Origin: Clostridia bacterium
Lineage (GTDB): Bacteria > Bacillota > Clostridia > TANB77 > CAG-465
Length of the DNA stretch: 64,000 nucleotides
Reading direction: 5' to 3'
Assembly: GCA_045536565.1 (NCBI GenBank)
Contig: JAZSNU010000003.1
Span: 32,001-96,000 of the forward strand
Shown: in pieces, positions 15,747-17,944 of the stretch
Numbering within the stretch: the stretch's first letter is position 1
Layout of the letters: every line of letters starts with the position of its first letter
The notes under the pieces: model-generated
Databases searched by the model: none
What the model was told of the DNA's origin: nothing
What the model saw: only the letters and a program-made list of their open reading frames with translations
Program-made: the position numbers and the translations under genes

Positions 15747-15944
15747 TTAAACCATTCCTTTAAGTTCGCTACACTCATCTGCTATTTCTTCTACGGGTTT
15801 GTATCTCCATGCATAGTCCCAGTCCCAATCGTTGTTTTTGTATAACAGAAACTTAGGTGAACAACCATCTGTGGTTACAGCATATACTTTGTATACAGTG
15901 GTATGTTTGCTAGTATCGTATTTTGATATAACTTTAAATAACAT
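15747..15944 (-). CDS. Small protein, one copy of a repeated ~50-aa beta-rich microdomain
   Basis: FKV...VYKVYAV...KFLLY.NNDW.W; RBS AAAGGA. Confidence 0.7.
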   Translation of the reverse strand: MLFKVISKYDTSKHTTVYKVYAVTTDGCSPKFLLYKNNDWDWDYAWRYKPVEEIADECSELKGMV

Positions 15945-15969
15945 GTTTAAAAATTCCTTTCTTTAAGTT

Positions 15970-16137
15970 TTAGTTGACTATATCGCCTAATTCAGCAGTA
16001 TCATCTACATACTCGCAATGGTCCGAATCAATCCATGAAAATGTAAAGTCCCTCCATATCAAAAAGTATGTATACCCATCATCATACCGGGTTGAAAGCA
16101 CTTTATAAATATTGTCATGATATTTAATTTTAAACAT
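15970..16137 (-). CDS. Small protein (55 aa), one copy of the microdomain
   Basis: MFKIKYHDNIYKVLST...TYFLIW..FSWIDS; RBS GAAGGGAG before ATG at 16137; promoter TTGACT-17-TATAAT at 16217-16189. Confidence 0.7.
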   Translation of the reverse strand: MFKIKYHDNIYKVLSTRYDDGYTYFLIWRDFTFSWIDSDHCEYVDDTAELGDIVN

Positions 16138-16296
16138 AAATCTGCTCCCTTCAAAATTATTTGTTAGATTTACATAAAATCTTAATATATTATATATTTT
16201 GTAGTGCAAAAAGTCAAGATTAAATGAATTAAAAGTACGGTATTTAAGTATGTTTTATGGTATACTATATAGGTATAAAAGAGGGGTAATGTTTGT

Positions 16297-17026
16297 ATGA
16301 GTATAGTTTTAGATATTTTAAGAGAACAAAAAGGAATAAAATTAAAAGGAAATATATATTATATAACACAAATTAATTTTGCATATAACAATAATAAAAT
16401 TGAAGGAGGTACTTTAACGAAAGAACAAACTAGATATATATATGAAACTAACACATTGATGTTAGAAGATGGAGAAAAGATAGCGAATGTTGATGATATA
16501 ATTGAAATGTCAAATCATTTTAAATTAGTTGATTATATGTTAGATGTCGCAGATAAAGAATTAACGGAAGATATGATTAAAGAATTCCATAGAATATTAA
16601 AATCACGGTACATCTGATGAGAGAAAAGATTGGTTTAATGTTGGAGATTACAAAAAGTTAGCTAATGAGGTGGGAGGAAATCCAACAGCAAACCCAAAAG
16701 ATGTATCTAATATGATGAAAAAAATAATAGAAGAATTTAATGCTTTGGAAAAAGTTACCGTTGTAGATATAATAAAATTTCATAATGATTTTGAAAAAAT
16801 ACATCCATTCCAAGATGGAAATGGTAGGGTAGGTCGTATTATAATGTTTAAAGAGTGTTTAAAAAATAATATAGTACCATTTATAATTCTAGACAAGGAT
16901 AAGATGTTTTATTATAGAGGACTAAAAGAATATGAAAAAGAAAAAGGATATTTAATAGATACTTGTTTAAATGCGCAAGATCAGTATCAAAAATTGTTAG
17001 ATAAGTATATAAAAGAGTTATTATAA
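16297..17026 (+). pseudogene. Fic-domain protein split by a +1 frameshift at CGG 16606 (pseudogene or recoded gene)
   Basis: N-half has NNKIEG; skipping C16606 gives ILKS-GTSDERKDWFNVGDYKKLANEVGG in frame with the C-half carrying HPFQDGNGRVGR. Confidence 0.85.
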
Positions 17027-17030
17027 GTAA

Positions 17031-17064
17031 AAAAGTATACGCCAATTAATAGCGTATACTATTT
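17031..17064. terminator. Bidirectional terminator between Fic and microdomain genes
   Basis: AGTATACGC...GCGTATACT inverted repeat. Confidence 0.7.
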
Positions 17065-17069
17065 GCTTT

Positions 17070-17411
17070 TCATTCATCTAAAATGATGCATTTATCATGT
17101 GGTACACTATACCATTTTCCGTTTTTAGAAAAATAAATCACATTGAAGTTTGTTGAGTCCATAGCCGTGGAATAGTGATTATGAATGAGTTCGATTGCTT
17201 GGAAAAAAACGACTTGGTTTGTATCAATGAACCTGCATCTTCTTTGAAGTAGTTCGTCATTCGAGTATGGTATAACCTGTGCAGAATCGATCCATTTTAA
17301 TTTATTATTGACAATTGTTAAAAAGAAAATTCTTCCAAACCTTGACTCTACTGAATAAACATCATAAATTGAATTATCATCCTTCTTGTCTATTCGCTTA
17401 ACTTTAAACAT
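17070..17411 (-). CDS. Small protein with two tandem microdomains (second divergent)
   Basis: MFKVKRID...IYDVYSV...IFFL...LKWIDS, then ...IYFSKNGKWY; RBS AAGGAG. Confidence 0.7.
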   Translation of the reverse strand: MFKVKRIDKKDDNSIYDVYSVESRFGRIFFLTIVNNKLKWIDSAQVIPYSNDELLQRRCRFIDTNQVVFFQAIELIHNHYSTAMDSTNFNVIYFSKNGKWYSVPHDKCIILDE

Positions 17412-17439
17412 AAAATTTCTCCTTTTGATATAAAATAAT

Positions 17440-17760
17440 CTAGTTTGTTTCGTTTGGTGAAATTATTTCATAGATATTTGCATATACCAAATTCCACATT
17501 TTATTTTCATATATCAAATATTTTGTGGGATCGAAACTTGTTTCTTGATGAACAGCGTAAACTTTATTTATGATTTTTTTATCATCTTTTTTGGTTATCT
17601 CGAATAATTCTTTACATTGTGGTTTGAAATTATTGGCATCGACCCAACAAAAAATTTTATCATTTTTATTGTATACCAAGAATAAAGGACAAGTGTGACT
17701 AGGTCTTATCTCATAAACAGTATAGATTTCTTTGTTATTGATTCGCTGAACAGTTAACAT
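17440..17760 (-). CDS. Small protein with two tandem microdomains
   Basis: IYTVYEI..LFLVY..FCWVDA and INKVYAV..KYLIYENKMW; RBS GAAAGGAG before ATG at 17760; promoter TTTACA-17-TATAAT at 17843-17815. Confidence 0.7.
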   Translation of the reverse strand: MLTVQRINNKEIYTVYEIRPSHTCPLFLVYNKNDKIFCWVDANNFKPQCKELFEITKKDDKKIINKVYAVHQETSFDPTKYLIYENKMWNLVYANIYEIISPNETN

Positions 17761-17944
17761 TTTATTTTCTCCTTTCAAAATTATTTTTTAGACTAAATGT
17801 TCAAATTTAGCTATATTATATCATATGTTTAGATAATTGTAAATGACAAATGTTACAAAAATATTACAAAGTATAAAAATATGCTAATTTTTTGGGCAAA
17901 AACACTTGATTTTTTACTTTTTATAGTTTATAATATGAGTATTG

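Follow-up and report, generated by a model that had tools for sequence, protein, structure and literature searches.

Microprotein genes beside a retron-like reverse transcriptase belong to an uncurated, predicted SH3-like family of phage contigs

Why do four very small genes lie directly upstream of a retron-like reverse transcriptase (RT) gene? This question is raised by a stretch of 64,000 nucleotides (nt) from a Clostridia bacterium (GenBank assembly GCA_045536565.1, contig JAZSNU010000003.1, positions 32,001 to 96,000; the whole stretch is the window), in which four minus-strand genes, A–D, encode copies of a domain of about 50 residues that we designate the microdomain. A preliminary description of this DNA, made from its sequence, proposed that A–D are the missing effectors or sensors of a new type of retron or, alternatively, phage-derived cargo acquired with the RT. 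On balance we favor a form of the second proposal, that is, that A–D are phage-derived, autonomous cargo and not parts of a retron.

The four genes, with their positions in the window, are as follows:

17440..17760, minus strand: gene D, 106 amino acids (aa); tandem microdomain pair, D1 (residues 1–49) and D2 (residues 52–103); open reading frame (ORF) with ribosome-binding site
17070..17411, minus strand: gene C, 113 aa; C1 (residues 1–52) clear, C2 (residues ~58–113) very divergent
15970..16137, minus strand: gene B, 55 aa; single microdomain copy
15747..15944, minus strand: gene A, 65 aa; single microdomain copy and an acidic tail

All four ORFs are present and intact at the positions first given for them, and ribosome-binding sites can be read from the sequence. 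The genes form two cassettes of two genes, D-C and B-A, one on either side of a Fic gene; the RT gene, on the same strand, starts 122 nt downstream of the end of gene A.

The microdomain family and its predicted fold

The preliminary description counted about six copies of one domain. We evaluated this count with an independent profile that was built from 89 outside homologues, with A and B left out; this profile assigns 64.2 bits to A, 55.9 to B, 51.0 to D1, 43.1 to C1, and 38.5 to D2, and 3.1 bits to C2, a score that is reached by 10 of 1000 shuffles. In an all-against-all BLAST of the copies, A, B, C1, D1, and D2 are linked at 27–43% identity, with no match for the second half of C. C2 can be aligned to the second domains of P0006, P0069, and P0115; that of P0006, a C-like homologue, scores 14.3 bits. 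Because C2 scores only 3.1 bits and is recognizable only via such C-like two-domain homologues, the count is five clear copies, which the profile upholds, and one very divergent copy, for which the support is indirect.

A search with a profile of the six copies identifies 246 cluster representatives (E ≤ 1e-3) in a set of 1.84 billion sequences. The members are mostly 47–65 aa in length (among 150 listed representatives, 121 are ≤70 aa and the median is 54 aa), and they share the consensus MFKV..x..YtVYsV..g..FLIY.n..W.Wv.A..Y.P.ee; F3, V20, F32, L33, W40, W42, and P50 (numbering of A) are near-invariant. Comparison of 91 members with Pfam, PHROGs, and NCBIfam gives no convincing family match, the best match of the family profile to PDB sequences has an E-value of only 0.11, and the only name carried by members in the sources searched is ‘hypothetical protein’. 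In PADLOC and Pfam at E ≤ 1, A–D have no match except for a chance-level one of A to Pfam Sirohm_synth_M (E 0.29); none of the recognizable retron effector domains (NDT, PRTase, ATPase/HNH, TOPRIM, TIR, protease, 2TM, CSD, HTH, and others) is matched in A–D, and a look-up of A in the ESM Atlas gave no usable match. Judged by these sequence comparisons, the microdomain is a real family that is uncurated in Pfam, PHROGs, NCBIfam, and PADLOC. No further copies were found in the 1.13-Mb genome beyond those in A–D.

In five proteins of 165–171 aa (P0332–P0336), the microdomain is fused N-terminally to PF10686, a SLOG domain of the YspA/cpYpsA type; this suggests that the two domains work together in some phage-like contigs.

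The AlphaFold2 (AF2) model of A, obtained with the family alignment, is a five-stranded barrel with a predicted local distance difference test score (pLDDT) of 86.1; the model of D has two barrels, with five strands per copy (pLDDT 82.5; predicted template modeling score, 0.71). The top matches in fold searches are SH3, Tudor, chromo, KOW, and retroviral integrase C-terminal domains, with Foldseek probabilities of 0.9–0.98 at E ~0.1 to SH3-like chains and VIA Z scores of 5.0–6.2 (root-mean-square deviation 1.3–3.4 over 43–56 residues), a Z range that the tool calls common; the halves of D each match SH3-like chains at Z 5.9–6.2. The best structural matches of all are uncharacterized phage proteins in BFVD (E 6.5e-4, template modeling (TM) score 0.87, 34% identity). 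The microdomain is, then, predicted to be a five-stranded SH3-like barrel, in agreement with an earlier guess of a small SH3/Tudor-like fold; because the scores are in the range that the tools call common, they identify a fold class only and imply no function.

Genomic context in phages

Using three member proteins as queries, we recovered 33 IMG/VR loci (14 + 11 + 8). Each of these viral contigs contains one copy of the microdomain gene, located within an early or replication gene block. In four phage contigs of 32–112 kb (L141, L143, L148, and L136), the gene is 0–445 nt upstream of the gene for the large subunit of topoisomerase II (phrog_543); a DNA helicase gene (phrog_1967) is found upstream of the microprotein gene in L141, L148, and L136, and the genes upstream of it in L143 are not a helicase. 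In a contig of temperate phage type (L023), the gene is one of several small early genes and is flanked by RusA and ParB/terminase; DUF1653, a family with a similar pattern, adjoins it there. A JGI metagenome search with a narrower family alignment returned only P0034-like phage contigs that had already been found. Members are seldom seen in cellular genomes: a search of 60 relatives gave none, and one of 400 further genomes from the class has a member. Judged by these contexts, the family is normally a single small early gene in phages of gut Firmicutes; the 33 viral contigs, together with best structural matches that are phage proteins, support the earlier suggestion that A–D are phage-derived cargo.

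Two of these loci have further features. In L148 (6171–8879), the topoisomerase II large-subunit gene is interrupted: phrog_543 is matched by an N-terminal part of 113 aa and again by a C-terminal part of 486 aa, and the HNH endonuclease gene (6614–7240) that separates them resembles a homing-endonuclease or intron-type insertion. In the one cellular genome (G233), annotation by eye places the gene between those for a CpaF/TadA-like ATPase and TadB/C-like membrane proteins, followed by Flp-pilin-like ORFs.

The reverse transcriptase, the cassettes, and the island

The features that adjoin gene A on its downstream side are as follows:

14521..15624, minus strand: retron-like RT, 367 aa; PADLOC RT_II-A 1.5e-47, Pfam RVT_1 1.4e-14
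14255..14530, minus strand: structured noncoding RNA (ncRNA) directly 3' of the RT gene; its long-range closing stem overlaps the RT stop codon

If A–D were partners of the RT, the microdomain would be expected beside its homologues. Our set of RT homologues comprises 92 loci (12 genomic and 80 viral); 90 have an RT that matches the profile of the clade, and 65 have ≥3 kb on both sides. In a six-frame translation of the 92 loci, the microdomain profile finds no copy beside the RT; the sole match, a marginal one in L056 (E 0.005), is at a distance of 10 kb. Conversely, the RT-clade profile has no match within ~6 kb of the microprotein gene in 34 microprotein loci. The five closest genomic relatives of the RT (36–46% identity) are located in unrelated housekeeping neighborhoods with no microdomain gene and no conserved protein neighbor; they keep only the ncRNA, so the conserved unit is RT plus ncRNA. 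A complex prediction for RT and A scores 0.00 against a mark of 0.32 and counts neither way. The preliminary description itself named a lack of enrichment next to RT homologues as grounds for refutation; by that measure, the proposal that A–D are the effectors or sensors of a new retron type fails, and we have removed that tempting assignment as unsupported; on the loci compared, A–D are not linked to the RT clade.

The retron assignment of the RT itself is also qualified. All of its 25 listed PADLOC matches are retron RT models. A survey of retrons gives NAXXH and VTG as motifs of their RTs (PMC7736814); the RT has LVKVH in place of NAXXH and ITG in place of VTG, and in this it departs from the retron pattern. 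The ~300 nt after its stop codon fold with a minimum free energy of −85.6 kcal/mol, compared with −51.0 kcal/mol for shuffles (z −8.1). The hairpin YTTAATGTYATTAAR, the stems of which covary, is found 56–103 nt after the RT stop codon in the window, L030, L032, L033, and L034; in L031 it is ~270 nt upstream of the RT. The ncRNA is, that is, 3' of the RT gene in five of these six loci of the clade, a position that counts against membership of the RT among retrons. An alignment of five downstream RNAs with MAFFT/RNAalifold misaligned the hairpin of the window and gave a 9-pair consensus, so we read its conservation from motif positions and single folds. At E ≤ 10 over 13800–18200, Rfam returns the S10 leader (described below) and chance-level matches only, and no retron msr family.

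The same interval, 13800–18200, was scanned with consensus patterns for promoters and terminators. The resulting sites, with the leader elements of the cassettes, are as follows:

17815..17843, minus strand: promoter-like site of the D-C cassette; TTTACA, 17 nt, TG, TATAAT; 11/12
17769..17794, minus strand: leader/ribosome-binding-site element of D; 23/26 identical to the B leader
17034..17060, minus strand: terminator-like hairpin after C; 11 pairs, of which 4 G-C, then a T run; the end of the Fic gene faces it too
16189..16217, minus strand: promoter-like site of the B-A cassette; TTGACT, 17 nt, TATAAT; 11/12
16145..16170, minus strand: leader/ribosome-binding-site element of B; 23/26 identical to the D leader
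15734..15761, minus strand: terminator-like hairpin over the A stop codon; 12 pairs, 3 G-C, T-rich tail
15682..15710, minus strand: promoter-like site between A and RT; 10/12, downstream of the A hairpin

The sites upstream of D and B are the two best promoter-like sites in the interval and have equal spacing to the start codon; at 11/12 each, they are strong sigma-70-like sites, and the sigma-A promoter ascribed to each cassette is supported. So is the near-identity of the two 5' untranslated regions: the B leader is the only match at ≥20/26 to the D leader on both strands of the window, and a search with the shared leader as a 24-mer, at ≤3 mismatches, finds no occurrence in 1.93 Mb of other loci. 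When the comparison is extended to 45 nt, B and D are identical upstream at 28 positions; this hardly exceeds the best of 74 other genes (27/45), so only the 26-nt core stands out. The coding sequences have a different relationship: A–D are 23–31% identical to each other and up to 56% identical to outside homologues. Duplication of a cassette, as first proposed, is therefore upheld for promoter and leader but not for the coding sequences, which are mutually no closer than they are to genes elsewhere.

No terminator had been seen between position 15747 and the RT; in fact, the hairpin at 15761–15734 is followed by a promoter-like site at 15710–15682. Judged by these sites, transcription of the RT appears to start from a site of its own, although read-through from A to RT may still occur.

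Both cassettes belong to a larger insertion:

14206..17849: island of 3.6 kb between dfrA and the S10 operon; holds A–D, the Fic gene, the RT, and the ncRNA
14185–14206 and 17850–17871: imperfect 22-nt direct repeat that flanks the island; two TGTTACA-type half sites
16297..17026, plus strand: Fic/PDC-S04 gene in two frames offset by +1, junction about 16600–16617

Among five congeneric genomes, four (G001–G004) have contiguous island flanks, separated by 0–170 nt. In the fifth (G005), a pilin-like gene and a Fic orthologue occupy the site in place of the cargo in the window, and this insert is bounded by the same repeat (L130, about 400–425 and 2865–2890). No integrase is found in either insert. 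From its sequence, this repeat-bounded site resembles a recombination hot spot, placed immediately ahead of the S10 promoter. A third attachment site (att)-like copy at 15665–15735, in the gap between A and RT, is loosely similar and is undetected at ≤6 mismatches of 22, so that tandem insertion of two modules would be a guess. Directly to the right of the island is the S10-Clostridia ribosomal protein leader (RF03136; 17944–18025, plus strand; 38.9 bits).

The gene order is the same in contigs from other samples, but the degree of identity is discordant between modules: X1 has ~82% for the RT and ~96% for C-D, and X4 has ~95% for the RT together with two in-frame replacements, one of D by 319 unalignable letters and the other of 63 nt within B by 72 letters. 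This discordance suggests that the island is a mosaic of modules with separate histories. The microprotein genes are the fastest-changing genes of the island and are still open; open alleles in related strains are 95% (P0001) and 85% (P0002) identical by alignment and 77% identical (P0005).

The two halves of the Fic gene match PADLOC PDC-S04 (2.1e-38 and 2.1e-51), and the gene matches Pfam Fic (3e-13). G005 has an orthologue (79% nt identity) at this site that is split at the same position; the frame junction is covered gap-free by contigs from two other samples, and in other genera the homologues are single ORFs (7/7). Between the window and G005, the ratios of nonsynonymous to synonymous divergence (dN/dS) are 0.145 for one half and 0.131 for the other, with dS ~1.1, so both are under purifying selection; these comparisons suggest a functional split gene or a programmed frameshift, not a dead gene. 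By eye, the Fic homologues of L152, L154, L155, and L156, which are from other genera of the order, extend upstream into an XRE-type helix-turn-helix in the same ORF, and this region is missing from the copies in the window and G005. The genomes that carry Fic homologues (G005, G006, and G038–G044) have no match to the microdomain family profile, and no Fic neighbor was seen among the genes examined in the 34 microprotein loci, for which no Fic-profile scan was made.

Explanations for the array and comparison with known systems

In the explanation that we favor, A–D are autonomous cargo of phage origin, and each cassette is a self-contained unit of predicted promoter, shared leader, two genes, and predicted terminator. 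SH3-like folds are commonly binding modules. Taken with the position beside helicase and topoisomerase II genes in phages and the fusion to SLOG, this usual role suggests that the barrel may be a small module that binds nucleic acid or a protein of DNA metabolism or of the nucleoid; from the tandem fusions and the adjacent gene pairs, it probably acts in pairs. More speculatively, the host cassettes might act as prophage-style ‘moron’ genes in phage–host conflict, for example if a host copy were to occupy the target of the copy belonging to an incoming phage.

Several observations weigh against this explanation. X4, a single contig of 8.5 kb, keeps the order RT-A-B, and the genes are thus truly co-inherited with the RT in this species. 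The RT neighborhoods that we compared include five close relatives with usable flanks, and P0308, an RT with 77% identity, is outside the set. The genomic contexts of the family amount to three subfamilies of related phage contigs and one bacterial locus, and in the latter (L015, G233:C33, 1393–6669), which is the sole bacterial one besides this genome, the gene is part of a Tad-pilus-like operon and not of a phage module. A tblastn search with A, P0171, P0012, and P0017 found no match in 50,697 GenBank phage records, although short queries give it little power; the link to phages accordingly depends on metagenomic viral contigs and structure. The fold matches are generic, with Z scores of 5–6 within the common range of the tool, and the binding and conflict roles are read from context and fold.

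The explanation to which the locus itself first points is that A–D are effectors, sensors, or regulators of the adjacent RT and ncRNA, that is, components of a new tripartite type of retron. The closeness of A to the RT, with both on one strand, the want of any recognizable effector gene adjoining the RT, the RT-A-B order on the contig from another sample, and the precedent of small beta-barrel (cold-shock) partners in type V retrons (PMC7736814) all favor it. We nevertheless consider it improbable: no copy of the domain adjoins the RT in any of the 92 RT loci, the closest RT relatives are solo RTs with an ncRNA, none of the 34 microprotein loci has an RT of the clade within ~6 kb, a terminator-like hairpin and a separate promoter-like site are located between A and the RT, C and D are beyond a Fic gene on the opposite strand, the RT and the cassettes diverge discordantly between strains, and A–D have no match to a PADLOC model. 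A local version of this idea, to which we give only a slim chance, is that a clade of effector-less RTs (solo RT and 3' ncRNA) recruited phage-type SH3-like microproteins as trans-acting partners here; the microproteins would then be decoys of a phage protein that is sensed by the RT and its multicopy single-stranded DNA (msDNA), or small toxins held in check. Mutagenesis of the array by the RT, as in a diversity-generating retroelement, might be suggested by the co-occurrence of an RT and a structured RNA in one island with alleles in which D and part of B are unalignable in frame; its probability is negligible, since no pair of template and variable repeats was found (no 30-nt noncoding window of the island matches A–D at ≤2 non-adenine mismatches; controls, 0–7) and the RT matches listed in PADLOC are all to retron models, the best being RT_II-A.

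Two further explanations dispense with the RT. That A–D no longer have a function, being remnants of a prophage or mobile element that has decayed, is consistent with an island that has att-like flanking repeats and no integrase and is absent from four of five genomes of the genus, and with the degeneracy of C2; but relics would not be expected to retain four intact ORFs with strong promoter-like and ribosome-binding sites, to vary between samples by in-frame replacements that leave them open, or to conserve a leader while the coding sequences diverged, so we regard decay as unlikely. Fic toxins often have small partner proteins, and the cassettes bracket the Fic gene, as might be expected if A–D were its antitoxins or regulators. 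This is highly improbable given that no microdomain gene is near the Fic orthologue that G005 has at this site, that Fic-bearing G006 and G038–G044 lack a match to the family profile, and that the microprotein loci showed no Fic neighbor among the genes examined (as noted, without a Fic-profile scan).

Phage-derived cargo thus remains the explanation that we prefer, and the analysis has value beyond this locus. It defines a widespread phage microprotein family, with at least 246 clusters at 50% identity, that is outside Pfam, PHROGs, NCBIfam, and PADLOC; its reproducible place in phage replication modules and its fusion to SLOG are a starting point for work on small early phage proteins. An array with a shared leader and in-frame replacement between strains, in an island of defense-type genes, is the kind of pattern expected of genes in phage–host conflict, and the four genes provide a compact system for asking what the barrels bind. 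If the microproteins were instead recruited partners of the RT, the locus would represent a retron architecture of a new kind, assembled from phage genes that were captured.

Among known systems, type V retrons offer one likeness. According to Mestre et al. (2020; PMC7736814), their accessory proteins are small OB-fold cold-shock domain (CSD) proteins of 67–86 aa that are statistically associated with an RT clade; A–D likewise encode small proteins, predicted to be beta-barrels, next to a retron-like RT, but unlike the type V proteins so described they have no CSD match, and association is seen in none of the 92 loci of their RT clade. The SH3-like small beta-barrels (SH3, Tudor/chromo, KOW, and integrase C-terminal domains) resemble the microdomain in its predicted five-stranded barrel of ~50 residues and have no sequence relationship to it (the PDB profile search noted above). 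The YspA/cpYpsA-related SLOG domain is joined to the microdomain in the five fusion proteins; A–D are without SLOG, and none is encoded in the island. The closest relatives by structure are the BFVD phage proteins A0A8S5M0Q6 (Siphoviridae sp. ct37J14, 52 aa), A0A0E3T696 (Bacillus phage Stills, 46 aa), and A0A127AWN3 (Bacillus phage SP-15), which are alike in size and in predicted fold (Foldseek E 6.5e-4 to 6.6e-3, TM up to 0.89, 24–34% identity) and, from these models, probably belong to the family; they are single-copy phage genes, whereas the window has four genes and six copies in a bacterial island. Prophage morons, finally, are short accessory genes of phage ancestry with their own promoter and terminator. 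Although the locus has no prophage, and although its cassettes are duplicated, share a leader, and are located beside defense-type genes (the retron-like RT and Fic/PDC-S04), A–D resemble morons as short autonomous cassettes of phage ancestry that occupy a variable island and are replaced from strain to strain.

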